Below, one piece after another: positions 16,812 to 52,628 of a DNA stretch of 64,000 bases. Position numbers and translations under genes: made by a program. The notes below the pieces were generated by a model, which saw only the letters and a list, made by a program, of their open reading frames with translations, did no database searches and had not been told where the DNA came from. Position 1 is the stretch's first letter, and the number at the start of each line of letters is the position of its first letter. Location: contig CAVYEE010000030.1 in assembly GCA_963767365.1 (NCBI GenBank), positions 132,475-196,474 of the forward strand, given 5' to 3'. This stretch comes from an uncultured Peptococcaceae bacterium (GTDB taxonomy: Bacteria; Bacillota; DSM-12270; Thermacetogeniales; Thermacetogeniaceae).

Positions 16812-16827
16812 GGCAATTTCTCCTTCC

Positions 16828-17751: not shown

Positions 17752-17776
17752 AGACTTAACCTCCCTTCAGTTATTT

Positions 17777-17962: not shown

Positions 17963-17988
17963 AACATCACCTCAAAAAGTAAGTAGTA

Positions 17989-21647: not shown

Positions 21648-24600
21648 GGCTCTCACTCCTCCGCCAGTCGTCCTTGGTAGCTGCTGCCAGATCACAACGA
21701 AGACAACGCCGGGCCTCTTTAATGGCCATCTCTTCAGTTAAACCTAGCTCCACCAAATTGAAGTTGTTTACTCTCTGGGACACCTCGGCACAAGGCATGG
21801 GAAAACGCTTCGCCTCAAGATCTTCCTCTGTCCGCGGGACCGGTTCCACATAAGGTGATGGCTGAGTAACGGTGTATTCATGCCTCACCGATTGACCCCG
21901 CAGGAACCTGTGGATACTGGCCGCGGCTAACTTACCGCTGGCTATGGAATCAGCAATGGTGGAAGGCCCGGTCACGGCATCGCCGGCGGCAAAGATACCC
22001 TCTCGTCCCGTAGCCAGGGTTTCCGGATAAATTACAATCGTGTTGCGATTGGATAGCTCCAACCCATGCCCGGGAGGCAGGAAGGAGAGGTCGGGTTCCT
22101 CACCGACAGCCAGGATGAGAGTATCTACCTGGCGAACGGATTCAGACCCCTTGATGAGGACTGGCAGGCGTCGGTCAGTCTCATCATATTCTCCCAATTC
22201 CACATCGAGACACTCGATGCCGCTCAACTTGCCATCACTGGCAACAATCCGGGAGGGGGCGCAGAGTTCGATGATCTTTATCCCTTCCTCAACCCCGGCT
22301 TCGATCTCTCGTTTCATGGCCGGCATTTCTGCCTTGCTTCTTCGGTAGATGATGGAGACATCCTTAGCGCCGGCTCGCAGGGCGGTACGGGCGGCATCAA
22401 TCGCCGCGTTGCCGCCGCCGATGACCCCCACCTTCTCGCCCAGCAGGACGCTGTTGCCTGCCTTAATTGCCTTCAGAAAGTCAAAAGCATACATTACACC
22501 GGGGGTATCTTCACCGGGCAGACCTAATCTCAAACTCCTGTGGGCACCTACAGCCAGGAGGATCGCTTTATAATCCCTGGCAAAAAGGTTGTCAAAGGTC
22601 AGATCCGGCCCTACAGGCGTATTGGTAAGGATTTCTATACCGGCCTGCCTGATGCAATCAATTTCTTGATCCAGGATATTTCGCGGCAAGCGATACTCCG
22701 GGATAACCATCGCCAGGTTTCCGCCCACAACGGAGCCCGCCTCAAAAATAGTGGGCTGGTAACCCAGTCGTGCCAGATCGAAAGCCGCAGCTAGGCCGGC
22801 CGGGCCGGAGCCAACAATGGCTATTTTCTCCAGCTTGGACGTCTCGGGGTTAGGCAACGGTTTCAAGCCGTTCTTGAGGGCATAATCGCCAACAAAGCGT
22901 TCAGGGCCTTGATGGATATCGATTCACCACCGGTCTCAAGAGAGCGGCACCGCTCCTCGCAGGGATGGTGGCAGATATAGCCGCAAGTGATTGGCAGAGG
23001 ATTCGGCCTGCGGATCACGTCGAAGGCTTCCCGGTATTCTTTCCTGGCAATATGGGCAACAAAGGTTGGCACATCGGTTTTCACCGGGCAATTGTATTTG
23101 CAAGGGGTGAAGATTATCTTCTTGCACACCATGGCGGGGCAGCGCTTGTACTTGATGTGCTGTTCATATTCATCCCGGAAATAGCGGGTGGTGGTCAGGA
23201 CCGGGTTGGGCGCCGAATTTCCCAGGCCGCACAGCGAGGAATCGATGATTACCCCGGCCATCTGCTCCAACAGCTCGATGTCGCCCTCCCGTCCGCGCCC
23301 TTCGGTGATGTCGGTGAGGATTTCCAGCATCCTTTTCGTCCCTTCACGGCAGGGAGTGCATTTACCGCAGGATTCATCCACGGTAAAGGTGAGAAAGTAC
23401 TTGGCCACGTTGACCATGCAGGTGTCCTCATCCATCACCACCATGCCACCCGAACCCATGATGGAGCCAGCCCCGGCCAGGGTCTCGTAGTCTGCCGAAA
23501 GATGCGCCAACCGCGCTGGGATACAGCCTCCCGAGGGACCGCCGGTCTGCACTGCCTTGAACCTCTTCCCAGCGGGAATGCCTCCGCCGACATCATAGAC
23601 AAGCGACTTCAGGCTGATGCCCATGGGCACTTCCACCAGCCCGGTGTTATTCACCTTTCCCACCAGGGAGAAGACTACCGTCCCCTTGCTCCGTTCCGTA
23701 CCCACGGCAGAGAACCAGTCACTCCCCCGGACGATAATCAGCGGGACATTGGCCCAGGTTTTAACATTGTTCAGGAGGGTCGGCTTGCCCCAGAGCCCGC
23801 TTTCTGCCGTCCGTGGCGGGCGCTGGCGCGGCTCCCCCGCCAAACCCTCGATTGAGGCGATCAGGGCGGTGGCTTCCCCGCAAACAAAAGCGCCGGCGCC
23901 CTCCTTGATCTGCAGGTGGAAGCTGAAGTCTGTGCCGAGGATCTTGTCTCCCAGCAATCCCAGCTCCTCCGCCTGGGCGATGGCGATCGTCAAGCGCCTG
24001 ATTGCCAGCGGGTACTCCGCCCGGCAGTAAATATAGCCTTCCGTGGCCCCAATGGCATAAGCGCCGATGATCATCCCCTCGATGACGCTGTGTGGGTCAC
24101 CCTCGAGAATGCTCCGGTCCATGTAGGCTCCAGGGTCGCCCTCGTCTGCGTTGCAGATGATATATTTGAGGCTGCCTTTAGCCCGACGGCATGTAGCCCA
24201 TTTTCTTCCGGCGGGAAAACCGGCGCCTCCCCTCCCCCGTAAACCCGAGTTGGTCACCTGTTGGATTATTTCCTCGGGCTTCAATTGATGGAGCGCCTTA
24301 TAGAGCGCAAAATACCCTCCACCGGCAATGTACTCCGTAATCTGTTCGGGATCGATGAGGCCGCAATTCCGCAGGATCCGCTTCTCTTGTTTGCTAAAGA
24401 AAGGTAAATCGGCATAGTCGGGGATCTCTTCAATTTCCGCCGGCAGCGTGCCCAAAGGGTAGCTTCTGACCGTATCCTCAAGCAGATTTACCTCTTCCCT
24501 GATCTTGCAGAGAAGGTACTTGGGAAGAATACGCCCGTCAGCCAGGGCGTCAATGATTTCCCTTGCTTTTCCTTCGTCCACCTTGGCGTAAATAATTCTC

Positions 24601-24848
24601 GGCCAGCCGGGCCTGGTGATATCTACAATGGGTTCTTTCTCACAGAACCCCAGGCAGCCGGTGCTGGTAACCATGCAGTCCAGGTTGCTGCTGGCGACCT
24701 CCTGCTGGATCGCTGCCAGGACTTCCGTAGCGCCCGCTGCGCGGCCACAACTGGCCATCCCTACCGCAATCTTGGTCGAGGCCGGGAAAAGAGAATGTAG
24801 ACCATCTTCCTTAAGCTGATTGAGGTCTTCCAAATTGCAGATCCTCAT
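21628..24848 (-). pseudogene. NuoF-like FMN/NADH module fused to GltD/NfnB-like FAD subunit; apparent 1-nt frameshift near 22901
   Basis: ORF 22863..24923 has NuoF motifs (GRGGAGFP, CGKCTPCREG) followed by a GltD N-terminal Fe-S domain. It runs into ORF 21628..22866 as ...GESISIKAL/ERFVGDYALKNGLKPLPNPETSKLEKIAIVGSGPAGL... after correcting one missing nucleotide. The start is ATG 24848. Confidence 0.75.
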
Positions 24849-25295
24849 CTTCACCACTCCCATATTTTGCCAAAACTTCTTTGACCAACTCCGGCCGCAT
24901 ATGGGCATATACTTGCTGATCAACCTGGATGACCGGCGCTAGGGCGCAACAACCGAGACACCGCACAATTTGCAGGCCGAACTTCCCGTCGGGAGTGACT
25001 TCGCCGGGCTTGATCTCCAGGGCTCTTTCCAGTTCATCCAGGATTCTGTCCGATCCGCGCACGAAGCAACTAGTGCCCTGGCAGATATTGATGACATGTT
25101 TGCCTTTCGGTTTGAGACTGAAAACGAGTAAAACGTAGCCACCTTCAAGATAGCGGCGAGAGGAATGTCGAGTTCTTGCGACACATGACGCAATACAGGC
25201 TCCGGCAGGTAGTTGAACTCTTTTGAATATCCTGAAGCACACTGATGAGTGGGCCGGCCTCGGCAACGGCGGTTGATAATGTCGTCAACTTTCAT
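24811..25295 (-). pseudogene. NuoE-like [2Fe-2S] thioredoxin-fold subunit; several apparent indels (about 25122, 25221, 25269)
   Basis: The conserved NuoE/HydC string can only be read by frame hopping: MKVDDIINR / VAEAGPLISVLQDIQK / EFNYLPEPVLRHVSQELDIPLAAILKVATFYS / FSLKPKGKHVINICQGTSCFVRG...CLGCCALAP. Confidence 0.65.
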
Positions 25296-25329
25296 TCGCC
25301 CTTCAGCCGGTAAGCCCGTTTCCTTCTGT

Positions 25330-25718
25330 TCAGGCTTGGGGTAAGATCGGTATTGGACCAGGCAATTTTGGGCGCATTCCCCACAGCCGGTGCATTTGTC
25401 CGGGTCAACCGAACGTGCTTTTTTCCTAATCCGGACACGGAACCGGCCCGGTGTTCCCTCAATATCAATTACCTCCGCATAAGTCAGCTTCTCGATGTTG
25501 ATGTGCCTGCCGCAGTCAACCATCCTGGGCGCTAAGGTGCACATGGCGCAATCATTCGTCGGGAAGGTCTTGTCGAGCTGGGCCATCACGCCGCCAATGG
25601 CGGGGTCCTTCTCCACCAGGTAAACCTTGAAACCAGATTCGGCCAGGTCAAGGGATGCCTGCATCCCGGCAATGCCGCCCCCCACCACCAGCACCGCGCC
25701 CACCTTTTGATCAGGCAT
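25330..25718 (-). pseudogene. hdrA: orphan HdrA N-terminal fragment (Rossmann GGGIAG + DKTFPTNDCAMC + first ferredoxin motif only)
   Basis: MPDQKVGAVLVVGGGIAGMQASLDLAESGFKVYLVEK...QLDKTFPTNDCAMC...CTGCGECAQNC, after which HdrA similarity stops. As sequenced, the frame runs on into nuoE. One extra C would give ...NCPGPIPILPQA-stop at 25330. Confidence 0.6.
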
Positions 25719-26583
25719 ATTGCGTCACCTCCAGCAGTCTGTCCGCCGTTATAAAATTATTTCCGAGCATCAGTTCCTGCGAAGAGAGCCCAAGACCGAT
25801 CCCCATCAATTGAGTGAAATAAAGAATGGGCAACTCATAGTTCATACCATAAGCCGTTTTAATTTCTTTCTGGCGCGTATCTAAATTCATATGGCAGAGT
25901 GGGCAAGCAACAGCTATCACATCGGCGCCCACCGACCTGGCCCCTTCCAGGATCTCATGGCAGAGTTTCAACACGATGTCTGTCCTTGTCGTAGCGAAAG
26001 AAGCCCCGCAGCAATCTGTCTTATAGGACCAGTCCAGGGTAACGATGCCCAGCGCCCTTAATATTTGGTCCATGCTTTCCGGATACTCACAGGCATCAAA
26101 CTGGACGACCTTCGGCGGTCTGGTCAGGAGGCACCCGTAATAGCAAGCCACTTTGAGGTCGTTTAATTCTCGTTTCACCAGGCGGGAAATTGTCGTCAAG
26201 AGAGGCTCTTGGGAGAACAACTGGAGCGGGTGATAAACCGCCACGTCGTCGCTCCATGAGCCTTTGACGACTTGCTTCGCCTCTTCTTTCAGGCCGGCGT
26301 CATTTTTCACATCGTGCAGAGCCGACTTGAAGCGTGAGAAGCAAGAGGCGCAGGGAACGACGACCTCCCTGAGTCCCATCCTTTCAATAATGGCCAGGTT
26401 GCCCAATGGCAGGGCCGTAGCAAGCAACCTGGAGACACTGTGAGCCGGAGTCGTGCCGCAGCAGAACCAGTCCTTGACCTCCTCCAGTTCAATATCCAAC
26501 TGGCTACAGACCTTGCGAAGAGACAAATCGTATTCTTTTGCGTAGGAATGCAAAGAGCAACCAGGGTAATAGGCGTATCTCAT
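25711..26583 (-). CDS. hdrB: heterodisulfide reductase subunit B (two CCG domains)
   Basis: This 290 aa ORF has YYPGCSL...WFCCGT and ...YYGCLLTRP...TDCCGA. Confidence 0.88.
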   Translation of the reverse strand: MRYAYYPGCSLHSYAKEYDLSLRKVCSQLDIELEEVKDWFCCGTTPAHSVSRLLATALPLGNLAIIERMGLREVVVPCASCFSRFKSALHDVKNDAGLKEEAKQVVKGSWSDDVAVYHPLQLFSQEPLLTTISRLVKRELNDLKVACYYGCLLTRPPKVVQFDACEYPESMDQILRALGIVTLDWSYKTDCCGASFATTRTDIVLKLCHEILEGARSVGADVIAVACPLCHMNLDTRQKEIKTAYGMNYELPILYFTQLMGIGLGLSSQELMLGNNFITADRLLEVTQYA

Positions 26584-27155
26584 ATCTTCCCCCTACTCTT
26601 TTCCCTGCGTTTGACTTGGGAAAATATTCTCCTTGCTGATGATGCCCCATTAAAGCTGGGCAAGAGATTCAGCTTTCCCTTTTTCAGCATCTCCAACCCC
26701 AGCCCCACATCCTTCGTAAAGCTGCGGGTGGAGACCTTGAAAGCAGCCATTAACCCCAGGTCGTACATCCGGCCGAAAAGTCTGATGCTATATAAGGCAC
26801 TCTGATTAAAGATCGGGATTTCGGGGACTTTAGCCTTGATCTTCTGACGCTGGGCAAGTATCCTGACGGCATCCATTACCGCAGCAATGTCCACGTCCTG
26901 CGGGCACCGGGTGGTGCATGTCTGACATGAAGCACAGAGCCAGATTGTTTTGCTTTTGAAGACGAGATCGCTCAATCCTAACTGGATCGCATGGAGTATT
27001 TGCGGAGGCGTATAATCCATGGCATAGGCAACTGGACACCCGCTAGCACACTTTGTGCATTGGAAACACGAGTTGACATTAACGCCGCTGACATTTCTCA
27101 AGGTTTCAGCAAAATTGGAGAATCCTTGCGCAACACTAAAGGTTTGTTTAATCAT
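26580..27155 (-). CDS. hdrC: heterodisulfide reductase subunit C
   Basis: It has two 4Fe-4S motifs (CFQCTKCASGCP, CASCQTCTTRCP). I prefer ATG 27155, after a GGAGG/GGGGAG-rich RBS, over GTG 27185. Confidence 0.85.
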   Translation of the reverse strand: MIKQTFSVAQGFSNFAETLRNVSGVNVNSCFQCTKCASGCPVAYAMDYTPPQILHAIQLGLSDLVFKSKTIWLCASCQTCTTRCPQDVDIAAVMDAVRILAQRQKIKAKVPEIPIFNQSALYSIRLFGRMYDLGLMAAFKVSTRSFTKDVGLGLEMLKKGKLNLLPSFNGASSARRIFSQVKRREKSRGKI

Positions 27156-27185
27156 CTCCCCACCTGCCTCCCCGTTTATGACCAC

Positions 27186-27345
27186 TAACGTTTACTATAA
27201 CTGCAGTTTACTATGGTATTAGGATAATCACTAATTATATTTCGAGATGCTACCATAAGATATTACTATTATTAAGTTTTGATATGATACCATAAGATAT
27301 TGTTACTATTATTAATTTTTGATATACTGCCATAAGATATTTTTA
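27186..27345 (-). promoter_or_regulatory. AT-rich promoter/operator cassette C1 (three direct operator repeats + TATAAT)
   Basis: In the minus sense it reads 3 x ATATCTTATGGnnnnATATCAAAA at a period of about 40 nt. The last repeat abuts TATAAT, followed by CCATAGTAAAC-n5-TTATAGTAAACGTTAG immediately upstream of hdrC. Confidence 0.6.
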
Positions 27346-27369
27346 TATAATTCCGTGGCCGCTTCCGGG

Positions 27370-28272
27370 CTACAGCACCTGCTCCTGGCAGAATTTGATG
27401 AAATCCTCCCTGATACTGAAGGGGTCATAAAGATCATCCAAGTTATCCAAAAAGATAAAATTAAACTCCCTGAGCATCCGGAAGTCGTCGATGGGAACAA
27501 TTTTAATGGTCTGGTTGGCTACGGGTTGCTTCAAAACCTCCCTGGAGAGGATGGTGCACCCCAGGTTGGACTCCACCAGGGAAACGATCGCCGTGATATC
27601 CCCGATCTCTATGTAAACGCTATCTTCATTCAACCTGTGCCCGGCCCGCCGCAGACAGTCCTCGATCACCATTCTGGTTCCCGAGCCCTTTTCTCTCAGA
27701 ATCAACCTGTCTGCCAGCAATTCGTCGATGCTCACGGATTTCTTGCCGGCGAAGGGATGATGCACAGACACCGCCAGCACCAGTTCGTCATCTTTCAACT
27801 TTGCGTAGCGGAACCTCGTTCTGTCAAAAAGACTTTCGATGACCGCCAGATCGATCTCGCCGGCGTATAGTTTTTTGATGATGGTCTCATGGTTGCCGAC
27901 CTGGAGAATGATATCGACGCTTTCCTTCTCTTTCTTGTATCTGCCGATGATGTCGGGCAGCACGTAACCGCCGTTCGTAAGGGTGGCGCCCACCCGGTAT
28001 TTCCTGATGATCCCCGGTTTATTGTCCAACATGGCTTTGACGATCTTGCCCAGGCGTTCCGCCTCTGTGGCGTACTGCAGCAAAATTTCGCCTTCCTTGG
28101 TCAACTCCATCTGCCGGTTCTTTTGATAGAAAAGAGGCGCCCGATAGTACTCCTCAAGGAATTTTACGTGCTGGGAAACGGCGGGCTGGGTAAGATTCAG
28201 GAGATTGGCGGCCTTGGTGTAATTATTGGTTTGAGCCACCACAATAAAGGTCTGGATCCTGATGTCGATCAC
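27370..28272 (-). CDS. LysR-family transcriptional regulator (paralog 1)
   Basis: This 300 aa ORF has an N-terminal wHTH (FIVVAQTNNYTKAANLLNLTQPAVSQHVKFLE). It is about 92% nt-identical to 38023..38952. Confidence 0.88.
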   Translation of the reverse strand: MIDIRIQTFIVVAQTNNYTKAANLLNLTQPAVSQHVKFLEEYYRAPLFYQKNRQMELTKEGEILLQYATEAERLGKIVKAMLDNKPGIIRKYRVGATLTNGGYVLPDIIGRYKKEKESVDIILQVGNHETIIKKLYAGEIDLAVIESLFDRTRFRYAKLKDDELVLAVSVHHPFAGKKSVSIDELLADRLILREKGSGTRMVIEDCLRRAGHRLNEDSVYIEIGDITAIVSLVESNLGCTILSREVLKQPVANQTIKIVPIDDFRMLREFNFIFLDNLDDLYDPFSIREDFIKFCQEQVL

Positions 28273-28314
28273 CTGGCTACCCCCTTTCGTCTTCCCTTAT
28301 CCTGAGTTCATCAG

Positions 28315-28503
28315 TTACCAGATGACTACCCGCTCTAATGCCCCCGCTTCTGCGAAGCGGTGGGATAAGAGCGGCTACGTCACTGTATTAACGATTTCTA
28401 AGCTGCAGCGGGGGAAGACAATCTCCGCTGCAGCCAAGAACTCGTTGAATGATAATTCAGTGGGGGAAAGCAAACCCCCACTGAAGCCAAGAACTAGTTG
28501 AAC
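28315..28503 (+). repeat. family A repeat, copy A2 (3' hairpin module duplicated)
   Basis: Module 1 is canonical. Module 2 is present twice: CTGCAGCGGGGG...CCGCTGCAGCCAAGAACTCGTTGAAT, then TTCAGTGGGGG...CCCCCACTGAAGCCAAGAACTAGTTGAAC. Confidence 0.85.
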
Positions 28504-28764
28504 TGGTAGGGTCCGAATAGAAGATCCGCTATAAGGTCATCGATACGTGAATACTACCAGGAACGATAACGGGAAGATCTACAAGCTCCCAGAGCATCTG
28601 GTGATCACCTGTTCGGAGAAGAGAGCCAAAATCGAGAGGTCCGGAATCACCGGCTACGAAAAGGCCGGGACTTTACGGGAAGACAAGTCCAAGATCAAGG
28701 CAGGCAACAAGCGAGGTGACAAAAAGTAGTTCGAGGAGATCGAGTCTGGCCAGGTTAACTGGGA

Positions 28765-28846
28765 TAACGTTTACTATAACTAAAGTTTACTATGGCATAA
28801 CGATAATCACTAATTATATTTTGATATGCTCCCATAAGATATTTCT
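28765..28846 (-). promoter_or_regulatory. AT-rich promoter/operator cassette C2 (single unit)
   Basis: In the minus sense it reads ATATCTTATGGGAGCATATCAAAATATAATTAGTGATTATC...CCATAGTAAACTTTAGTTATAGTAAACGTTA. It lies about 490 nt upstream of lysR paralog 1. Confidence 0.5.
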
Positions 28847-28847
28847 A

Positions 28848-28873
28848 TAACTTCGCTTCGCTTCGTTTTAATC
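28848..28873 (-). repeat. family B fragment
   Basis: AACTTCGCTTCGCTTCGTTTTAATC matches the 5' hairpin of family B (AACTTCGCTTCGCTTCGTTTGAATC). Confidence 0.5.
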
Positions 28874-28896
28874 ATCCAGTTGTGGAGCGAAGCGAG

Positions 28897-29660
28897 TTAG
28901 CGAATCAGGTAGATTACAGCTACCGCAACCCCGATCACCACCACAATAGATCGCAGAACATCCGGTTTCACCCGCCCCGCCAGTTTTCCGCCCAGCGCCC
29001 CACCAAGCAACGCCCCCACGAACATCACCAGCGCCACCGGCCACACAATCCTTCGCGAAAACACGAATAATACTGCTGCCGCCACATTTGCACTGAACGA
29101 GATCGTCTGTTTGAGAGCATTGAGCCTCGTCAATGAGTCATCGACGGTGACTCCCAAAACAGCCAGCACAATCACGTTCATCCCCCCGACAAAGTATCCC
29201 CCATAAAGGGCTGTCAATCCCACCGGGATCAGCCCCATAAATCTGAGCCTGTTGGGGATGCGGCTACCTGTGTTCGGCGCGTCAACCAGTCGCGCACACG
29301 TTTTTGAAAAGCCAGCAGCCCTACGGCTAGTAGAATCAAATAGGGTACCAATTCACGAAAGATGTTCTCGGACGTGGCTTTCAAGAGCAGCCCGCCCAGC
29401 AGTCCGCCGGCCAAACCCACAGGAATGTACAACCAGAGGCGTCGCTTTTGTCCCTGCAAGTCCTTGAGTTGGGAATAAATGCCCCCCAGGTAGCCAGGGC
29501 ACAGGGCCACAGTGTTGGTCATTTTGGCAGCAACAGGAGGTATGCCCACCACAGTCAGCACTAGGAATGCGATGAGAGTGCCCCCGCCGGCGAGAGCGTT
29601 AATTGCTCCTGCGGCTAGGGCTGCCAGGGCTACTAACATATAATCCAGCAGGTTGAGCAT
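28897..29660 (-). pseudogene. TauE/SafE (DUF81) family anion exporter; two overlapping half-ORFs (frameshift about 29240-29290, or a natural split)
   Basis: The two halves are 143 aa and 113 aa. Both are polytopic and Gly/Leu-rich (AGAINALAGGGTL..., GGALGGKLAG...). Together they equal one DUF81 protein of about 255 aa. Confidence 0.6.
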
Positions 29661-29851
29661 TACTTGTTTCCTCTACATTATATTATTTCTCTTCAATATA
29701 TTTCACCAGCTTTTCTATTTTGACCACTACAACAGCCAAAACATTGAGCAAATAATGATCCGACTTGTTTAGTAATTCAAACGAAGCAAAGCGAGGGGGA
29801 GACTGCCTGGATGGAAGGAACGAGTCCTGCGGAATGCCGACACGCCTATTT

Positions 29852-30691
29852 CTACCACTCGGGAGGCAATTTACGGAGTTGGGCCAGGTTGAAGACCGGA
29901 CCGTCGAGACAGATATACTTGGATCCGATGTTACAGCGGCCACATTGACCGATGCCGCACTTCATGCGCCCCTCAAGAGTGGTCACAATCTGGTTATCCT
30001 GGAAGCCTAGCTTCTGCAGCGATGCCAGCACCAGCCTGATCATGATCGGCGGCCCACAGACAACGGCAGTAACGTTATCCGAACTGGGAGCGAGCTCCTC
30101 CAGGCATGTGGGCACAAAAGCCACGTTGCCGTCCCAGCCTGACTCCGGGCGGTCGATCGTGGTGATCACCCTGGTATCCGGCTGGGATGGCCATAACTCG
30201 AACAGCTCTTTCTTAAAGCAGAGGTCTGCCACGCTGCGCGCCCCGTAGAGAATCTGGATGCTGCCATATTTCTCCCGGTTGGTAAAGCAGTGCTTGATCA
30301 GGGAGCGGAGCGGCGCCAGTCCGATCCCGCCTCCGATGAACAGCATGTTTTTCCCCTCGTACTCATCCACCGGAAAGCCGTTGCCATAGGGCCCCCTGAC
30401 CCCTAATTCCTGATCGATCTCGATCTCGTGCAGGGCGTCCGTCAAGAGGCCCACCCTTCTGATGGCAAACTCCAGGTGGTCTTCGGCCTGCCAGGCGACG
30501 GAAAACATCCCCTCGCCGACAGGCAGCAGGGAGACCATGCACAACTGCCCCGGCCTCACCTGAAAAGGCACACCATTTTCAGCGGTTAAGTGAAAGTTCT
30601 TAACGTCATAAGTTTCCTCGATGATGTCGATGACCTTGAAAATCCTCGGAACAAGCAGATTATTGCCATTGCTAACGGGAGACATCTGCAT
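29852..30691 (-). CDS. FAD/NAD(P)-binding + C-terminal [2Fe-2S] oxidoreductase (FlxA / AsrB / sulfhydrogenase-gamma-like)
   Basis: This 279 aa ORF has a ferredoxin-reductase fold (MLFIGGGIGLAPL) and a C-terminal CGIGQCGRCNIG. Confidence 0.75.
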   Translation of the reverse strand: MQMSPVSNGNNLLVPRIFKVIDIIEETYDVKNFHLTAENGVPFQVRPGQLCMVSLLPVGEGMFSVAWQAEDHLEFAIRRVGLLTDALHEIEIDQELGVRGPYGNGFPVDEYEGKNMLFIGGGIGLAPLRSLIKHCFTNREKYGSIQILYGARSVADLCFKKELFELWPSQPDTRVITTIDRPESGWDGNVAFVPTCLEELAPSSDNVTAVVCGPPIMIRLVLASLQKLGFQDNQIVTTLEGRMKCGIGQCGRCNIGSKYICLDGPVFNLAQLRKLPPEW

Positions 30692-31690
30692 TGACCTCCC
30701 CCATCCGGTTGATGATTGATACTATACTGATGCCGCTCGGGCACAGCGCCACACAACGTCCACAACCGCTGCAGCCAAAAGAGCCGTAGCGCTCGGGGAA
30801 GAATTCCAGCTTGTCGAGGAACCGGTTGCGGAACCGGTCGCGCTTATTCGCCCTGGGGTTATGTCCGCCGGCCATCAGGTTGTATTCCTGGTACATGCAA
30901 GAGTCCCAGCAACGGAAACGGCTCCCTGACTGACCGCGATTTTCTACCTGGATGTCAAAGCAGTGGCAGCTCGGGCAGACATACGTGCAGATACCGCAGT
31001 TGATGCAGCGGGATGACAGCTCATCCCACACCGGATGGTCGAACAGGCCGTTCAACCTGGCAGGCAGATCCCGCGTCCTGAGTTCCAGTTGGCAGCCAGC
31101 CGCGGGCTGCCTCGCAAAATCCCCGGCGTCAACCAGCAGGTCGTCCAACCGGTTAGTGAGGTCCCGCCCCTTTGTGGTTACCGGTTCCCAGGCATACCAT
31201 CCGATCCTTCATGGAGTAGCACGTCGGCTACTTCGGCGCCCATCGGGTCAACGCCCATCGATGAGCAGAAGCATAACGGGCCGGGCCGGGCACACGTGAT
31301 GCCGATCACGGTCAACCGGTCTCTTCGTGCCTGGTAAGAGGTATCTACATAGCCCCGCCTCAGGAACACCTGGTCAAGGTTGGCGATACCCCTCCGGTCA
31401 CAGGCCCGCGCCCCGAAGAGGATGCTGGGGTCTAACCCGTCATGCGTCCCGGTGATCTTGACTTGCTGGTGGTCTGCTGTGAAGCCATACATTGTTTCCG
31501 TTTGCGGGAAAACCAACCCTTTTGGGGAAAAGGTGGTATTCAGGCTGTCCAGAACCAGGTCGGACGTGCGCTCAACCGACCACAGCCCGAAACTGCTGGT
31601 TGCCTCATCTTGCAACGGGACATAGATACGGGCCTCTCCTGCCAACCGGTCAAGGACGGCTGTGATCTTATCTTTAGGCAAGCTCTTCAT
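30672..31690 (-). pseudogene. 4Fe-4S dicluster protein (AsrA / FlxB-like); apparent frameshift near 31200-31212
   Basis: ORF 31178..31690 ends ...ADVLLHEGSDGMPGNR-stop. A neighbouring frame is open from (R)IGWYAWEPVTTKGRDLTNRLDDLLVDAG... into ORF 30672..31148 (CINCGICTYVCPSCHC, CSGCGRCVALCP). Confidence 0.65.
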
Positions 31691-31696
31691 CTGATG

Positions 31697-32620
31697 TCAC
31701 CTCTCTGTGGCGAAGGGATCCGGGTCTTCCGCCCCGTACCTGCTCAGGGGTGGTTTTGCCCCCTCTTCCAGGCTCAAGGCGGCCTCGTATGGTCCGAAAA
31801 GCTGATCGACGTCCTTGATCAGCTTGCTGTTCAATAACATCAAGGGAAGCCCCGCCGGGCAGGCCCTTTCACATTCTCCGCACTCCACGCACCGGCCGGC
31901 AACATGCATCGCCCTGATCACATGGAACATCATATTGTCTGCGACATTGATCGACCGCTCGACCCACTGGGGGCGGGTCTCATCAAAAATACAGCGGCGG
32001 CAGTTGCAGGCGACACAGATGTTCCGGCAGGCGTAGCAGCGGATGCACCTGGAGAACAGGTTCGTGAAGAACCGGCTGCGCTCATCGGCGCTCATCGATT
32101 CGATCCGCTTGACGTCGGCAAACCGCTCCCCGCTCAGGTGCGGCGGCTGAGGATCGCCGAGTGTCTCATCGTAGATGACCGGGTTCGGGTGAACGCACTG
32201 CAGGCATTTGCCGGCCAATGAGAGGTGAGATGTGTTCGCACGTCCCAACGCCAGGCCTGATGAGTCCAGGGCTTCGGCCACCGGGTCTTTCATCCCGGGA
32301 CAGGCGATGCCGATGATATAGAGCCTCTCCCGCGGGAATTGCCCATCCTCCGCCAGGCGCACGATGCCGCGGGAATCGCAGCCCTTGACAAAGATGCCGA
32401 TCTTCTCCTGCCTGTCGCGGTAATCGAGCAGATACACGCTCAGGTTGTGGATGCAATACTCGTCGAAGATCAGCCGTCCGGCTTCCTCCTGACGGCTGAT
32501 GAAGGCGGGAACGCTCTGGTTCGTTCCCTGTTCCTTGGCCCAGCCAAAGACCAGGTCTACCTGCCTGTTTTCCAACAGCGTTCTGGCTAACCGCTGTACG
32601 TCGGGCGTTAGATCGTTCAT
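31697..32620 (-). CDS. Fe-S oxidoreductase (FlxC / FrhB-like, two 4Fe-4S motifs)
   Basis: The start is ATG 32620 (MNDLTPDV...), overlapping the corrected upstream stop as ATGA. Motifs are CIRCYACRNICVACNC and CVECGECERACP. The first 52 aa of track ORF 31697..32776 belong to the upstream MvhD domain. Confidence 0.7.
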   Translation of the reverse strand: MNDLTPDVQRLARTLLENRQVDLVFGWAKEQGTNQSVPAFISRQEEAGRLIFDEYCIHNLSVYLLDYRDRQEKIGIFVKGCDSRGIVRLAEDGQFPRERLYIIGIACPGMKDPVAEALDSSGLALGRANTSHLSLAGKCLQCVHPNPVIYDETLGDPQPPHLSGERFADVKRIESMSADERSRFFTNLFSRCIRCYACRNICVACNCRRCIFDETRPQWVERSINVADNMMFHVIRAMHVAGRCVECGECERACPAGLPLMLLNSKLIKDVDQLFGPYEAALSLEEGAKPPLSRYGAEDPDPFATER

Positions 32621-32806
32621 ACGACATCCCTCATTGTTCTGCATGGCCCGAGCCTGCGCACGTCGTCGACCACCATCCTCATATGGTCGGCAAACTTCTC
32701 CCCTCTCGGACCCGGAGATCCAGACCGTATGGTATCTCTCCCGTTCGATGCCCAGGTATTCCATGAGATTTTTCATCAGCGCATGACGCCGTCTGGTATA
32801 ATAATT

Positions 32807-32823
32807 GCCACTAGCATAGTGGC
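32807..32823 (-). other. SECIS-like hairpin 13 nt downstream of TGA 32837-32839
   Basis: GCCACUA-ugc-UAGUGGC lies at the distance expected for a bacterial SECIS. Confidence 0.4.
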
Positions 32824-34399
32824 AGTCACCGATGTGTCAGCCGGACACCAGGACGGCATCGGCTCCCTGATGAAATGCCCGCAGCACGAACTGGGGATCT
32901 ACCCGGCCGGAACAGGGGACACGGATCAGCCTGATGTCGGCCGGATACTGCAAGCGGCTCAACCCCGCCAGGTCGGCCCCGGCATAGGAGCACCAGTTAC
33001 AGGCAAAGGCCACAATCTTAGGCTTCCAATCGCCGTCTAGAGACATAAACGCATCCACCTCCGCAACCAGTTGTTCATCGGTGAAACCCTTCAGATTCAG
33101 CGCTCCCGGCCGGCAGGCACAGACGCAGGCGCCACAGCCCTGGCACAATGCCTCATTGACGGATGCCACCTGGCGCTCGATACCCTGATGGCCGCCCGAC
33201 CGCACAGTTTCCAAGCTGATCGCCTTGTAGGGACAGATCGGAACGCAGAGCCCACAACCGGAGCACTTGAGCGGGTCGACCCCGGAGACCATCGGCTGGG
33301 TGGCCAGTTCTGACTTGGAGAAGAGCCCACAGACCTTGACGGCTGCAGCGCCGGCCTGGGCAACGGTATCCGGAATGTCCTTGGGTCCCTGGCAGGCGCC
33401 TGCCAGGTAGACACCCCCGGTGAATGTCTCCACGGGTTGGAGCTTGCGGATGGGCCTCCTGGAAGAAGCCGTCCTTGTCGGTCGAGAACCCGACCACCTT
33501 GGCAACCTCGTCTGACCCGCCGGACGGAACCATTGCCGTGGCGAGCACCACCATGTCGACTTCCACCTCGAGCAGCAGTCCGAGCAGGGTATCCTCGCTC
33601 TTCAAAACCAACCGCTGGCCGCGGGGGTAGATCTTGCTCACCCGTCCCCGGATGTACTTGACCCCCTTGTTCAGGGCACGCTGGTAAAACTCTTCGTATC
33701 CCTTGCCGGCGGTGCGGACGTCCATGTAAAAGACGTAGGCCTCGCCGCCCGGGATCTTGTCCACCACCTGCATGGCGTGTTTAGCCGTATACATGCAGCA
33801 GGCACGCGAGCAGTAGGACTTGCCCTTGGTGTTGTCCCGCGAGCCAACGCACTTGATGAAGGCCACGCTCCGCGGTTCTTCATGATCGGATGGGCGCTTG
33901 ATCTTACCGCCCGTGGGGCCGGAGGCGTTGACCAGCCGCTCGAAGTGCAGCCCGGAGATCACGTCGGGGAACTGGCCATAGCCGTATTCTCCGTACTTGC
34001 TCGCCCAGTCGAACTGGTCGTATCCGGTGGCCATCACGATGGCACCCACCGACTCGGTCACCAGTTCGTCCTGGTCTTTAAAATTGATTGCCTGGGTGGG
34101 GCAGACCTTCTCGCACACCCCGCATTTGCCATCCGTCAACATGCGGCAGTTTTGCGCGTCAATGACCGGTTTGTTGGGCACAGACTGTGCAAATACTTTA
34201 TGGATGGCCGTTCTGGTTCCCAGTCCCAGGTCAAATTCGTTCGGAATCTTCTTTCTCGGGCACTTGGTCTCACAGGTGCCGCAACCGTTGCATTTATCCC
34301 AATCAACATACTTGGCCTTGCGCCGTATAGTCGCCGAAAAGTTCCCGATATAGCCGTTGACTGCCTCGACCTCTGACAGGGTATAGATTTTAATGTGAG

Positions 34400-34420
34400 G
34401 ATGCTGTGCCACAGCAACCA
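34400..34420 (-). other. SECIS-like hairpin about 19 nt downstream of TGA 34437-34439
   Basis: GGUUGCUG-uggca-CAGCAUCC forms an 8-bp stem with one U.U mismatch. Confidence 0.35.
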
Positions 34421-35040
34421 TCTTGGGGGTGCTAATTCAGGCGGAACAGTCCAGGGTGGGGAAAGTCTTGTCCAACTGGGCCATCTTTCCCCCAATGGTG
34501 GCCTCCCGCTCCACCAGCACCACTTCGTATCCGGCGTCGGCGATATCCAGGGCCGACTGCATGCCGGCGATGCCGCCCCCAACCACCAGCGCCCGTTTGG
34601 TGACCGGGATGGTACCGGTCTGTAGCGGCTTGTTCTTCAACACCTTGAAGACCGCCATTCTGACCAGGTCGCATGCCTTGCGGGTGGCCTCTTCGCCGTC
34701 GGAGTGGACCCAGGCGTCCTGCTCCCGAATGTTGACCATTTCAAAGAGATATGGATTCAAGCCCGCCCTGGCGACCGCCTGGCGGAAAGTGTTCTCGTGC
34801 ATCCGCGGGGAGCAGGATGCCACCACCACCTGGCTTAACCTTTGTTCCCTGATAGCTTTTTTGATCAGCTCCTGTCCCGGATCAGAACACATGTACTTGT
34901 ATGTAGTGCTGAAGACCACGCCGGACATCTTGGCGGCTGACTCGGCCACCTTCCCGGTATCCACGGTTCCCGCGATATTGGAACCACAATCACAAACGAA
35001 GACTCCAACTCTCTTCATCCAAGTCACCTCATTTTTTGAG

Positions 35041-35073
35041 TGATGAGTGATGAGTGATGAGCATGCTCATCAC
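35041..35073. repeat. 3 x TGATGAG heptamer run merging into a perfect 20-nt palindrome (hdrB/hdrA spacer)
   Basis: TGATGAG occurs three times at 35041-35061. GTGATGAGCATGCTCATCAC occupies 35054-35073. Both lie inside the 100-nt spacer between the hdrC/B stop and the hdrA start. Confidence 0.7.
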
Positions 35074-35118
35074 TTCTTTTTAGACTCATTACTTTTTACT
35101 TTTTCACTCATTACATTT

Positions 35119-36535
35119 TTAGCGGGCAAGATGTCTTACCGCTTCCACGAAGTGACGGTTGACCCCGACGCTTTCTGGCGAGGCGCCGCAGGCCACTGCT
35201 ACCAGTTCGGTGATGTAATAGACAGGGATGGTCACTCTTGTCCCCAGCATTCTCTCGATCTGGCGGCGCCGCATATCCAGGTTCGTGTGACAGAGCGGGC
35301 AGGCGGTTACTATACTGTCGGCGCCGCTCTCCTCAGCGTTTTTCAAGATTTTGTAGGCCATCCGGAGACCCACATCCGGAAGGGTGGTTGCCAGGCTGGC
35401 CCCGCAGCATTCAGTCTGATGCGACCAGGCAACCGGCTCGGCCCAGAACCCGCATGATGTTATCCATCGACTGAGGATACTCGGGATCATCGAACCCGGT
35501 GTACTCTACCGGTCTGACCAGAAAACATCCATAATAACAGGCCGGCCGCAGCCTTTGCAGCGGCTGCGTAATTTTACCGGCTACGGCCTCCAGCCCGACA
35601 TCGACTGCCAGTAACTCCAGCACCGAAACTGTTCGGTTGGTCGCCCTGTATTCTATGCCGATCGCTTCATTGATCACCTTGAGCATGGTTGACTGATGCG
35701 CATGGTGTTCAGTCGCCCGGAAGCGGTTGTAGCAGGCGGCACACGGCGCCAGGACATTCAGCCCTTCCTGCTCGGCCAGGGCGAGATTGCGGGCGGGCAG
35801 GGCCAGCGAGAGAAGCTTGCTGGTACTATGAGCGGAAGTGGCTCCGCAACAGCTCCAGTCCTTGATCTCTTGCAATTCGACTCCCAGCAGATCCGCCGTT
35901 TTTTGCACGGAGGACCCGTATTCGGCTGCGGATGTCTCCAGTGAACAACCGGGATAATAGGCGATCCTCAACTCTCTTCCGCCCTCCATCCGTTTCACCC
36001 GGGCATAGATCCGACTGACGGCGTTCCGGTCCTTGACCATATTGGGGAACACGTGCATTTTACCACGCTGCGCCATCGGTATCCCCAGGTCTGTATCCTT
36101 TAACAGTTGACCGGTTCGCAGGTTGTATTCCATCAGCAGGCCAGCCTCGAATAACCGCCCGAATCTGACCACCGACCTGAGGAATACATCATTGAAAACG
36201 GCGATCTTACGATTGGTAACGATCTTTCTTCTCAGGGCTTCTCTTCGTAAAGCATCCATCAGCGCCGCGACATTCACTCCCTGGGGGCAACGGGTCGTAC
36301 AGGTTTCACAGGTGACGCACAACCAGATGCCGTCAGCCTTCAGCGCCTCGTCTACCATCTCCAACTGCAGCAGCCGGATCACCCGCCTGGGCGTGAAGCT
36401 CATGCCAAAACCCGCCGGACATCCCGCCGAGCATTTCCCGCACTGGTAGCACAGGCTGACCTTTGTTCCGCTTTCCTGCTCGATCCGTCTGATCAGATTT
36501 TTTTTAGATTCGTCGGGAGCGAGGATCGCTTCCAA
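35119..36535 (-). pseudogene. HdrC-HdrB fusion protein; apparent 1-nt frameshift near 35441
   Basis: The HdrC part has CYQCGKCSAGCP and CVTCETCTTRCP. The HdrB part has YYPGCSL..WSCCGA and ...ACYYGCFLVRP. It continues in ORF 35119..35490 as ...DNIMRVLG/EPVAWSHQTECCGAS... The preferred start is TTG 36535, 6 nt after GAGGGGGAG, because the track start GTG 36628 lies inside repeat A3. Confidence 0.75.
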
Positions 36536-36596
36536 AAGGGTCTCCCCCTCTATAAAATATCTATGCTTATTTCTCGATTCTCTGTCGTCTTCCTCT

Positions 36597-36733
36597 TTAC
36601 CACAAATGACTACCCGCTCTAATGCCACCGCTTCTGAAGCGGTTGGATAAGAGCGGCTACGCCTCTAGTTAACTATTTCTAAGCTTCAGTGGGGGTAAGA
36701 CAATCTCCCACTGAAGCCAAGAACTAGTTGAAC
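36597..36733 (+). repeat. family A repeat, copy A3
   Basis: This is a full two-module copy, with the inner stem variant GCCACCGCTTCTGAAGCGGTTGG. Confidence 0.85.
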
Positions 36734-36783
36734 AAATTGTATCTACTTCATTATTTCAACCCCGTACCTTGTTTTCGCGAAGG

Positions 36784-36827
36784 CTACTCACGAGAAAAGC
36801 GCCTGGAGGCGCTTTTCTCGTGAGTAG
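36784..36827 (-). terminator. perfect 20-bp stem hairpin downstream of the 157-aa gene
   Basis: CTACTCACGAGAAAAGCGCC-tgga-GGCGCTTTTCTCGTGAGTAG lies 46 nt after the stop at 36873. It has no U-tract, so it could be a terminator or a processing/stability element. Confidence 0.45.
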
Positions 36828-36872
36828 AACTCCGTAACCATAACCTGGTAAATATTCCGTATCAAGGGGTGA

Positions 36873-37346
36873 TTATGAATCATACAACCTAAACAACTTA
36901 CACTCCGGCTGTTTCGCTCGAATTTCAGGCCCGTAGCCATCACGATGTTCAATCTCCAGAGTTTCGCCTTTAAGAGTCGCCCTCATACCTAACGCTGATA
37001 CTTTTACGTAGTTATAACCGTCCTGATATCCGGCAACGCCCTTTTGGTAGACCTGACCATTGGGTATGACCACTGTGTTGCAGCCCGGGACATTTACCTT
37101 TATTTGTTTTCCATCCCAATAGGTATAAATAAAAAACGCAGTGAGTCCAACATACCATTCTCCATCGCGCTTCGTTGCCATAATCAAATTATCGGGATCC
37201 ACTTTTGCGTCCAACATTATAAAACGCACCCTGAGACGTAAAGACTCAGTCTTCGGCCGCCCGAAAATAGCGGTGATCGTGCTGAAATCCCTCGCTTCTT
37301 CATCCTGATAACAAGGATCCTCGATATCCCTCTGTACGACGGCCAT
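36873..37346 (-). CDS. hypothetical protein (157 aa, beta-rich, no recognised family)
   Basis: It has a strong RBS (GAAAGGAGG) and coding-like composition. It is co-oriented with, and 96 nt downstream of, the 64-aa membrane peptide. Confidence 0.6.
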   Translation of the reverse strand: MAVVQRDIEDPCYQDEEARDFSTITAIFGRPKTESLRLRVRFIMLDAKVDPDNLIMATKRDGEWYVGLTAFFIYTYWDGKQIKVNVPGCNTVVIPNGQVYQKGVAGYQDGYNYVKVSALGMRATLKGETLEIEHRDGYGPEIRAKQPECKLFRLYDS

Positions 37347-37441
37347 CCTCGTCGCCTCCTTTCTGGGCAGCTTTTTGCCCCTGACCTTTTTCTGTAACCG
37401 CCGGGTTTTTTACCCGATGGTATGACATGGGTGACGCAAGC

Positions 37442-37636
37442 TCAAACTGTTTCGGCATCGGCATTAGGGAAAGAGACCGGGAACTTGTATATGAGCTTGC
37501 GTCTCTTCTTAGCCATTGAGTAAACCAGGCCAATCGGTGTGCCAGCTAAGCCAATTACCCCTAGCATGATGGTTATGACGGGAACACAAAGCAAATATAG
37601 TATGCCCACAACGATTTTGACGATTACCATGCTCAT
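37442..37636 (-). CDS. small two-TM membrane protein (64 aa)
   Basis: It has an RBS (AAAGGAGGG), two hydrophobic segments (IVKIVVGILYLLCVPVITIMLGVIGLAG) and a basic tail (KKRRK). Confidence 0.55.
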   Translation of the reverse strand: MSMVIVKIVVGILYLLCVPVITIMLGVIGLAGTPIGLVYSMAKKRRKLIYKFPVSFPNADAETV

Positions 37637-37722
37637 TCCCTCCTTTCATGACTTTTGAACCGACACTGTTCTGGCGCCAACATCCTGCATCGACTTGAAA
37701 CAAAGCCAAGGAGCATTTTCAC

Positions 37723-37935
37723 TAACATTTACTATAACTACGATTTCAGTTTAATATGGTTTTAAGGTAATTACCAATTATAATTTGATATGCCACCATA
37801 AGATTTTTCACTAATTATATTTCAATATGCCAGCATAAGATATTTTTATTAATGAACATTTACTATAACTACGATTTCAGTTTAATATGGTTTTAAGGTA
37901 ATTACCAATTATAATTTGATATGCCACCATAAGAT
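37723..37935 (-). promoter_or_regulatory. AT-rich promoter/operator cassettes C3+C4 (exact 81-nt unit duplicated at 131-nt period)
   Basis: 37724-37804 and 37855-37935 are identical by eye. Each carries ATCTTATGGTGGCATATCAAATTATAAT in the minus sense. An extra operator, ATATCTTATGCTGGCATATTGAAATATAAT, lies between them. Confidence 0.6.
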
Positions 37936-38022
37936 AATTCTATATTTGTCGGTTTCCCAAAGGAAACAGAAGTGGAGAATAAACGCAGCATGGGGGGTCA
38001 ATCAGGTGGGGGGAAAATGGTC

Positions 38023-38952
38023 TTATTTCTGCGTCAGCTCTCCGCCGGGCTGCAGCACCTGCTCCTGGCAGAATTTGATGAAGTCCTCCCTGAGACTGAA
38101 GGGGTCATAAAGATCATCCAGATCATCCAAAAAGATAAAATTAAACTCCCTGAGCATCCGGAAGTCGTTGATGGGAACAATTTTAATGGTATGGTTGGCT
38201 ACGGGTTGCTTCAAAACCTTCCTGGAGATGATGGTGCACCCAAGGTTGGACTCCACCAGGGAAACGATCGCCGTGATATCCCCGATCTCTATGTAAACGC
38301 TCTTTTCGTCCAACCTGTACCCGGCCCGGTGCAGATAGTCCTCGAAAACTGTTCTGGTTCCCGAACCCCTTTCTCTTAGGATCAACCTGTCTGCCAGCAC
38401 TTCGTCGATGCTCACGGATTCCTTGCCGGCGAAGGGATGATGCGCAGACACCGCCAGCACCAGTTCGTCGTCTTTCAACTTTGCGTAGCGGAACCTCGTT
38501 CTGTCAAAAAGACCTTCGATGACCGCCAGATCGATCTCGCCGGCGAATAATTTTTTAATGATGGTTTCGGTGTTTGCAGCCTGGAGAATGATATCGAAGT
38601 TTTCCTTCTCTTTCTTGTATCTGCCGATGATGTCGGGCAGAACGTAACCGCTGATCGTCAGGGTGGCACCCACCCGGTATTTCCTGATGATCCCCGGTTT
38701 ATTGTCCAACTTGGCTTTGACGATCTTGCCCAGGCGTTCCGCCTCTGTGGCGTACTGCAGCAAAATTTCGCCTTCCTTGGTCAACTCCATCTGCCGGTTC
38801 TTTTGATAGAAAAGAGACGCCCGATAGTACTCCTCAAGGAATTTTATGTGCTGGGAAACGGCGGGCTGAGTAATATTCAAGAGATTGGCGGCCTTGGTGA
38901 AGTTCTTGGTTTGAGCCACCACAATAAAGGTCTGGATCCTGATGTCGATCAC
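38023..38952 (-). CDS. LysR-family transcriptional regulator (paralog 2)
   Basis: The start is GTG 38952, homologous to the paralog 1 start. It is 309 aa, with a 9-aa C-terminal extension relative to paralog 1. Confidence 0.88.
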   Translation of the reverse strand: MIDIRIQTFIVVAQTKNFTKAANLLNITQPAVSQHIKFLEEYYRASLFYQKNRQMELTKEGEILLQYATEAERLGKIVKAKLDNKPGIIRKYRVGATLTISGYVLPDIIGRYKKEKENFDIILQAANTETIIKKLFAGEIDLAVIEGLFDRTRFRYAKLKDDELVLAVSAHHPFAGKESVSIDEVLADRLILRERGSGTRTVFEDYLHRAGYRLDEKSVYIEIGDITAIVSLVESNLGCTIISRKVLKQPVANHTIKIVPINDFRMLREFNFIFLDDLDDLYDPFSLREDFIKFCQEQVLQPGGELTQK

Positions 38953-44518: not shown

Positions 44519-44566
44519 GGGCCGCTTCAGAAAAGCGGGGGCATTAGAGCGGGTAGTCATCTGGGA
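44519..44566 (-). repeat. family A repeat, truncated copy A4 (module 1 only)
   Basis: The reverse complement reads CCCAGATGACTACCCGCTCTAATGCCCCCGCTTTTCTGAAGCGGCCC. It lacks the outer-stem 3' arm and module 2. Confidence 0.7.
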
Positions 44567-44589
44567 AATACTACGCAATATTAGAGTTG

Positions 44590-44632
44590 AACAGGCACGT
44601 GGCATTAAACTTCGCTTCGCTTCGTTTGAATG
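44590..44632 (-). repeat. family B fragment (B3)
   Basis: AACAGGCACGTGGCATTAAACTTCGCTTCGCTTCGTTTGAATG matches 51970-52014 of copy B2. Confidence 0.65.
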
Positions 44633-52500: not shown

Positions 52501-52628
52501 TTACCGATGCTACCCGCTCTAATGCCCCCGCTTCTGAAGCGGTGGGATAAGAGCGGCTACGCCCCTAATTAACTATTTCTAAGCTTCAGCGGGGGAAGGC
52601 ACCCACTGAAGCCAAGAACTAGTTGAAC
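52501..52628 (+). repeat. family A repeat, copy A6
   Basis: This is a full copy with a small deletion in the module 2 loop and 3' arm. Confidence 0.85.

Follow-up and report, generated by a model that had tools for sequence, protein, structure and literature searches.

The stretch of DNA analysed here, 64,000 nucleotides (nt) of contig CAVYEE010000030.1 from an uncultured Peptococcaceae bacterium (positions 132,475 to 196,474; hereafter the window), carries an AT-rich cassette at three loci, which we call sites A, B and C, together with two genes for closely related LysR-type regulators, lysR-1 and lysR-2. We put the probability that this cassette is the binding region of LysR-1 and LysR-2, with a promoter geometry different from the one first proposed for it, at about three in four. 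The element is a lineage-specific operator-promoter of the YeiE/CysL family and not a new type of element, and it adds nothing mechanistically new for LysR regulators. Most likely, a YeiE/CysL-like sensor of an oxyanion, probably sulfite, controls the Hdr/Flx/hydrogenase operons of the window.

A scan for the 21-nt core ATCTTATGGNNGCATATCAAA with up to three mismatches gave seven matches, all on the minus strand and all at the three loci (27241, 27278 and 27318 at site A, 28820 at site B, and 37784, 37821 and 37915 at site C), compared to 0.01 expected from shuffled sequence, and none of 100 shuffles reached seven. On the minus strand the cassette has the form ATCTTATGG-N3-CATATCAAA in seven copies, and the repeat that follows it downstream was recovered as five TTATAGTAAACGTTAG-like matches, against 0.11 expected from shuffles. 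Copies of the core were found only beside lysR or its targets, with none elsewhere in the window. The conserved unit begins about 12 nt upstream of the core described in the original prediction, at (A)TA(A/G)-N7-TTAT, and in its complete form it holds three AT-rich dyads made of ATAA/TTAT half-sites lying on a single helix face. Box 0 reads ATAG-N7-TTAT in the complete modules A3, B and C1. In module C3, at the junction with the truncated unit C2, the left arm is lost (AGTG). Box 1, TTATGG-N2-GCAT(A/C)T in A3, B, C1 and C3, overlaps Box 0 and includes the dyad TATG-N4-CATA, and Box 2, of the form ATAAT-N5-ATTAT, is either ATAATTAGTGATTAT, with perfect arms, or ATAATTGGTAATTAC. The dyads show the T-N11-A form of LysR sites. 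The second downstream repeat, TTATAGTAAAC, is a local 16-nt duplication that is missing in the related locus L014.

Site A consists of three operator units in front of hdrC, spaced 40 and 37 nt. Its complete proximal module, A3, occupies 27185..27269 on the minus strand (Box 0 at 27255-27269, Box 1 at 27245-27258, Box 2 at 27224-27238 as ATAATTAGTGATTAT, the predicted -10 element TAAACT at 27205-27210 and the second repeat TTATAGTAAACGTTAG at 27185-27200), and the ATG of hdrC follows at 27155. The extra upstream units A1 and A2 (27270..27346, minus strand) keep Box 0 and Box 1; their Box 2 is degenerate (TTAATAATAGTAA) and they have no TATAAT. Site B, a single complete module (28764..28848, minus strand; Box 0 28834-28848, Box 1 28824-28837, Box 2 28803-28817, TAAACT 28784-28789, second repeat 28764-28779), lies just past the end of the second target operon and 493 nt before the start codon of lysR-1. 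Site C (37722..37943, minus strand) precedes a gene pair for proteins of 64 and 157 amino acids (aa) and is built of two complete 94-nt modules, C1 (37853-37943) and C3 (37722-37812, with Box 2 at 37767-37781 and TAAACT at 37748-37753), with one truncated unit, C2 (37804-37849), in between. Sites A and C stand at proper start-codon distances from their operons. The original prediction had thus been right in placing the cassette at three loci, in seeing the operator part threefold before hdrC at a period of about 40 nt, in locating a copy about 490 nt upstream of lysR-1 and in describing direct repeats downstream.

The same layout is found across a family of regulators. About 40 loci with LysR homologues (31-72% identity) share three dyads followed, some 13 nt on, by an extended -10 element, TGnTAnAAT. 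When the pattern TTAT-N6-ATA[AT]-N5-nAnAAT was searched on both strands of 80 metagenome loci whose LysR homologues are 31-51% identical (990,682 nt), 44 matches were obtained, of which 36, at 36 different loci, are located on the strand opposite to lysR and no more than 250 nt upstream of it, and eight lie elsewhere. Aligned without gaps, 26 non-redundant sites gave the consensus ATAA-N7-TTAT-N6-ATAA-N6-ATAA-N7-TTAT, followed after some 10 nt by TG.TA.AAT (offsets 55-63). With offset 0 placed 10 nt ahead of the first TTAT, half-sites occur at offsets -1..2, 10..13, 20..23, 30..33 and 41..44, at intervals of roughly one helical turn, and the -10 hexamer at 58..63. In all five distant loci tested, the gene 20-35 nt past the extended -10 encodes a YeiH protein (PF03601). 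Among relatives with 57-72% identical LysR proteins, the module lies just downstream of lysR and co-directional with it in L013, L014, L096, L098 and L017, and is weak in L095. In L013 (69%) and L095 (60%) lysR is followed by the anaerobic sulfite reductase genes asrABC, in L096 (58%) and L017 (50%) by a PF03601 (YeiH) gene, and in L014 (72%) it lies near a gene for a CCG-domain iron-sulfur (FeS) protein; this last target was considered as an ortholog of the HdrD-like gene of the window and rejected, the two being not orthologous. The locus L012 (98%) is a strain variant in which sites A and B are identical to those of the window.

An independent comparison came from a position matrix built from the 26 distant sites only (offsets -2 to 45), with the window cassettes left out. 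In the whole window it ranked site B first (27.4 bits), followed by C1 (23.9), A3 (18.2), C2 (15.2), C3 (10.1) and A1 (8.5), with A2 at 2.0 bits, and no position outside the three cassette loci exceeded 7 bits. Shuffles of the whole window gave a maximum of -0.4, and shuffled AT-rich segments alone had a 95th percentile of 8.6. Elsewhere the same matrix scored 49.9 bits in L013, 35.8 in L096, 34.2 in L017, 32.3 in L098 and 15.1 in L014, and weakly, at -5.4, in L095. In 8 kb around yeiE of Escherichia coli K-12, the top match was the yeiE-yeiH intergenic site (L100 3634-3681), with 27.4 bits, where shuffles reached no more than 1.1; here, about 16 nt away from the start codon of yeiE, ATAA-N7-TTAT overlaps TTAT-N6-ATAA, the Box 0 and Box 1 arms are perfect and the distance to the start codon of the regulator is as in the family. 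A limited search of the YeiE literature did not find this yeiE-yeiH operator spelled out. A matrix derived from Firmicutes thus finds both the window sites and the E. coli site, and the operator belongs to the whole YeiE-like family and not to one genome.

At the level of the exact sequence, the cassette is specific to its lineage, since a strict 18-base core searched in 185,579 reference genomes (the source genome not among them) gave only 11 single matches, chance-like and in unrelated taxa. The locus of one such chance match, from an uncultured Clostridia metagenome-assembled genome, has at L008 7100-7910 a regular series of a repeat of about 36 nt, ATTATATCATATCAAAATTTAGTAGCAAACTATAAC, with a 66-nt period, which looks like an array of clustered regularly interspaced short palindromic repeats (CRISPR) unrelated to the cassette. 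No RNA family was found by Rfam, either over the whole window at gathering thresholds or over 27000-29000 at E values up to 1, leaving a riboswitch or leader-RNA reading without support.

The two regulator genes, lysR-1 (27370..28272, minus strand, 300 aa) and lysR-2 (38023..38952, minus strand, 309 aa), both encode LysR-type transcriptional regulators with HTH_1 and LysR_substrate domains (Pfam PF00126, E = 2e-18 and 2e-19; PF03466, E = 2e-36 and 4e-37). They are paralogs with 89% identical proteins and 93.5% identical DNA over 922 nt, to which the earlier figure of about 92% is a reasonable approximation. Each gene has a cassette immediately behind it in the same direction, as had been described for two of the three loci, and behind the cassette an operon. 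The differing codons comprise 17 synonymous and 32 non-synonymous ones. Only five of the 32 differing residues are in the DNA-binding domain, all of them conservative, and 27 are in the effector domain; both proteins would therefore be expected to read the same operator, while their response to the ligand may differ. A look-up of the exact LysR-1 protein gave no record, and homologues are numerous, some of them labelled 'selenium metabolism-associated LysR' or CysL, including several CysL-labelled ones at 48-55% identity.

For the promoter itself, the family alignment leads to a different register from that of the original prediction, in which TATAAT served as the -10 box. Family-wide, TATAAT is a T plus the left arm of the 15-bp dyad ATAAT-N5-ATTAT, placed at about -40 to -35, and a separate, conserved extended -10 lies about 22 nt downstream of the TATAAT position. 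At the corresponding offset (58-63) all four complete modules (A3, B, C1 and C3) have TAAACT, within the first CCATAGTAAAC repeat, and this is likely to be the -10 element in the window. With the family offset, Box 0 would be centred at about -64, Box 1 at about -53.5 and Box 2 at about -33 relative to the predicted transcription start. The predicted geometry is thus that of a classical LysR promoter, in which the regulatory site lies around -65 and the activation sites overlap a missing -35; such promoters have their activation sites at about -45/-35 and a -35 that is weak or absent (PMC11495319). The TATAAT register would place the dyad at -31 to -18, which is not a classical geometry for a LysR activator. 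A simple sigma-70 scan of the minus strand found no -35/-10 pair in the cassettes, as would fit an activator-dependent promoter. Of the LysR-activated architecture proposed earlier, the association of a LysR operator-promoter with lysR therefore stands, on the evidence of about 40 loci and the matrix, and the register most likely does not.

Several observations weigh against LysR binding with this corrected geometry. TAAACT matches the -10 consensus at only four of six positions and is without the TG extension of the family. The TATAAT of Box 2, by comparison, fits that consensus at all six positions, and the second repeat offers an alternative -10, TATAGT, with a five of six match. The spacings of 37 and 40 nt between units are not whole helical turns, so that cooperative binding to the extra units is not obvious, and site B has no gene directly downstream. 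On the protein side, the best NCBIfam model for both paralogs, NF040786 (LysR_Sec_metab), scores 183 bits for LysR-1 and 192 bits for LysR-2, below its cut-off of 250, the YeiE model NF040889 scores 128 and 126 bits and does not reach its cut-off of 480, and the paralogs are only 26-27% identical to E. coli YeiE, whose sulfite-contacting S97 is replaced non-conservatively by L in both.

An alternative reading takes TATAAT as a working -10, with the dyad in the spacer, LysR occluding the promoter or activating it in an unusual, MerR-like manner, and the tandem units acting as tandem promoters. In its favour, A3, B, C1, C2 and C3 all have the perfect -10 TATAAT, TAAACT is weak, and uninduced LysR proteins do cover core promoters (PMC11495319). 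We nevertheless consider this arrangement unlikely, as the right arm TTAT (offsets 41-44) is equally conserved family-wide and TATAAT is not preceded by TG, as the strongly conserved TGnTAnAAT stands 22 nt downstream, and as A1 and A2 do without TATAAT altogether. Moreover, close relatives have good -10 elements at the offset of TAAACT, namely TGATATAAT in L096, TGGTATACT in L017 and TATATT in L013. In L098 the element immediately behind lysR has a -10, TGACATAAT, displaced by one nt.

A far smaller chance attaches to the cassette being bound by another regulator, for instance a global repressor responding to sulfur, iron or redox state, with the adjacency of lysR incidental. The surroundings of Box 2, TAATTAGTGATTATC, do loosely resemble the AT-rich operators of other families, but the module tracks this LysR family at a fixed distance and orientation in some 40 loci ranging from Firmicutes to E. 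coli, and its dyads have the LysR T-N11-A form. Consensus sites for sigma-54, Fur, Rex, IscR and CymR, compared by eye, had the wrong spacing or half-sites, and the FinR box TATCCA-N5-TGGATA (PMC5302815) was rejected as the same operator because its half-site differs.

It is just as improbable, in our view, that the copies are duplication relics or a small mobile repeat of which only some are functional, with B, A1, A2 and C2 perhaps inert. Such a reading could draw on the low family-matrix scores of A1 and A2, on site B having no gene for 493 nt, in a gap that holds a dispersed repeat, and on a 492-nt indel that removes a fourth cassette in this strain. Against it, site B is the best matrix match of the window and is identical in a second strain, sites A and C stand at proper distances from start codons, and the flanks of the cassettes show neither terminal inverted repeats nor target-site duplications. 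The latter finding, together with a strain comparison that shows duplication of the cassette with lysR, led us to reject a mobile cassette resembling a miniature inverted-repeat transposable element.

The strain comparison comes from L099, like L012 a locus of assembly GCA_052915985.1 and of the same metagenome. It matches the window at 99.8% through lysR-2, continues with 492 nt that are absent from the window (L099 1127-1618, against window 38042-38045) and then matches again at 97.9%. The extra piece opens with a fourth cassette (25.9 bits) directly after the stop codon of lysR-2, and the flank of this cassette (agcccggaagcggccacggaat...) is the same as the 3' flank of lysR-1. The shared flank indicates that the duplicated unit was lysR with its downstream cassette, and that the strain of the window has since lost one copy. 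Segmental duplication of lysR and cassette hence accounts for the copies that had been called portable, with no need for mobility. The extra units in sites A and C are tandem duplications, with periods of 40, 37 and 131 nt; A1 and A2 may be extra anchoring sites or neutral. Site B may drive lysR-1, forming a cascade, or be a relic. The gap between site B and lysR-1 contains a 60-aa antisense open reading frame (28547-28729, plus strand) with no Pfam match, as well as the dispersed repeat.

This dispersed repeat is about 130-190 nt long, with two similar GC-rich hairpins (e.g. TTCAGTGGGGG...CCCCCACTGAA) and 80-92% identity, and has at least seven copies in the window (28315-28502, 60618-60748, 52501-52627, 52107-52239, 36603-36733, 12909-13040, 59779-59862 and 44522-44567), one of them between site B and lysR-1 and one within the second target operon, ahead of the HdrD-like gene. 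Rfam has no match for this repeat. In the L099 insertion the cassette is followed by about 400 nt of non-coding sequence with a short dispersed repeat, which in the window occurs at 44568-44630, 51971-52013 and 9572-9614. Between the TauE stop codon of the second operon and site B, at 28850-28896, there is an inverted repeat, CTCGCTTCGCT ... AGCGAAGCGAAG, which could be the terminator of that operon, and its GCGAAGCGAAG motif is also present in the L099 insertion.

The genes behind site A form operon 1 (21628..27155, minus strand, from Pfam and translation), in the order hdrC, hdrB, a gene for an HdrA-like N-terminal domain in the cysteine form with NuoE/NuoF-like parts, and a GltD-like gene; it probably extends into genes for a 1097-aa protein of the FeS/flavin adenine dinucleotide type and NiFe hydrogenase subunits (15648-21695). 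Site C has as its target operon 2 (28897..37636, minus strand, from Pfam, NCBIfam and translation), which encodes the 64-aa and 157-aa proteins, an HdrD-like protein, HdrA, a 359-aa FeS protein, AsrA/AsrB-like (Flx-like) proteins and, at its end, TauE of the sulfite-exporter family, which is also found beside lysR in L013. The HdrA gene of operon 2 has an in-frame TGA (34437-34439, minus strand) at a conserved selenocysteine position (KTFPTLDCSA-TGA-ISTPKM), making it a probable selenocysteine codon, and the HdrA-like protein of operon 1 has cysteine at the homologous position (KTFPTNDCAMCTLAPRM, 25580-25640). In a search 3' of the TGA for a selenocysteine insertion sequence fold, the hairpin found there was no more stable than shuffles (z = -0.5). 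The two operons hold no siroheme sulfite reductase, the only genes of a sulfite-handling kind in the window being those for the AsrA/B-like subunits and TauE in operon 2, and no selA, selB or selD adjoins the regulators of the window. The target operons also contain apparent frame breaks (29229-29238, 31148-31178, about 33505 and about 24939-25100), which are either assembly indel errors or marks of pseudogenes: TauE falls into parts of 143 and 113 aa and the AsrA-like protein into parts of 170 and 158 aa, and the frame is lost in the C-terminus of HdrA and in the NuoE-like part ahead of the NuoF-like domain. The window carries carbon monoxide dehydrogenase/acetyl-CoA synthase (CODH/ACS), the nearest named AcsB being from an uncultured member of the Bacillota (86%) and those of the cultured genera Carboxydothermus, Desulfofundulus and Moorella reaching at most 62%, which points to an uncultured member of the Bacillota as the host.

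Returning to LysR-1 and LysR-2 as the proteins likely to bind the cassette, we propose that a LysR tetramer would be anchored on Box 0 and, with no ligand, would touch Box 2 and occlude the promoter. Binding of a small oxyanion, most likely sulfite, would then shift it to the inner half-sites and recruit RNA polymerase, which would turn on the Hdr/Flx/hydrogenase operons. The module was duplicated along with lysR, and later local tandem duplications supplied the extra Box 0/Box 1 units of site A and the second full module of site C.

The choice of ligand draws on what is known of YeiE, which binds sulfite via S96, S97, N126, S127, E145, R191, S195 and T197 and activates cysJI and yeiH (PMC8931317, PMC12880088), with E145 excluding sulfate (PMC8931317). 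Both paralogs retain five of these eight residues (N126, E145, R191, S195 and T197) and have T in place of S96; at S127, LysR-2 has T and LysR-1 has H. Of the 27 effector-domain differences, eight are no more than three residues away from a pocket position, compared to about 4.6 expected by our own count, which is suggestive only. The conserved pocket residues, the asrABC and YeiH targets of relatives, and TauE point to sulfite or a similar oxyanion; the identification of sulfite in particular is tentative, at somewhat below even odds. Selenium is a possible signal as well, as selenite has the same shape and the best family model is selenium-associated.

Among described systems, yeiE-yeiH of E. 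coli, Salmonella and Cronobacter comes closest, sharing the operator layout and the five sulfite-contact residues, including E145, and close relatives of the window regulators adjoin YeiH homologues. It differs in that yeiE and yeiH are divergent, whereas the window module lies downstream of lysR and co-directional with it, and in that the window regulators, at about 27% identity to YeiE, have Hdr/Flx/hydrogenase operons as targets instead of yeiH or cysJI, with operator units in tandem. CysL (YwfK), the activator of cysJI in Bacillus subtilis, has been proposed to work like YeiE (PMC8931317) and is a Firmicutes LysR protein of sulfite metabolism; orthologues of the window LysR proteins at 60-69% identity precede asrABC, although the window operons are without siroheme sulfite reductase. 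A third likeness is to LysR_Se/HrsM (NF040786), the best NCBIfam match, HrsM being the regulator that controls selenocysteine/cysteine isoenzyme genes in Methanococcus (PMC5322559): one window operon has the HdrA with a TGA codon and the other the cysteine HdrA-like protein. However, the score is under the cut-off, no selA, selB or selD adjoins, and the two Hdr proteins are not isoenzymes. Finally, the 'sliding dimer' promoters of BenM, CbnR, OccR and FinR, the last a YeiE homologue that binds a dyad at -46 to -83 of fprA (PMC5302815), resemble the cassette in site positions, T-N11-A dyads and a weak or absent -35. They differ in their half-sites (TATCCA for FinR and ATAC for BenM, against ATAA/TTAT in the window) and from the window's co-directional arrangement with extra operator units. 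The original claim that the combination had not been described is thus only partly true, since the regulators belong to the known CysL/YeiE/LysR_Se group and the layout is also present at E. coli yeiE-yeiH.

A more speculative and rather unlikely extension is that the two paralogs, with the same DNA specificity and diverged effector pockets, form a two-input switch, or a cascade via site B. The pockets do diverge, with H128 in LysR-1 and T128 in LysR-2 at the position of YeiE S127, and NG against IS at 100-101. If this were true, one input would lead to the cysteine-type Hdr/NuoF/hydrogenase operon and the other to the selenocysteine HdrA/Flx operon, and the switch would respond to sulfur as opposed to selenium oxyanions, of which sulfite and selenite have a common geometry. 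Bacteria would then possess an equivalent of the archaeal HrsM selenium switch, one that ties oxyanion sensing to electron-bifurcating Hdr complexes.

We believe that an explicit operator consensus for YeiE/CysL/LysR_Se-like regulators, from Clostridia-type Bacillota to E. coli, will be usable for predicting regulons in genomes and metagenomes. It also corrects a misreading, as a perfect TATAAT in this setting is most likely a regulator half-site near -35 and not a -10 box. For the uncultured CODH/ACS-carrying Bacillota, our findings suggest a sensor of a sulfite-type oxyanion placed over Hdr/Flx/hydrogenase operons, including one with a probable selenocysteine HdrA, and thereby offer a testable hint at the role of the poorly understood Hdr-like complexes.

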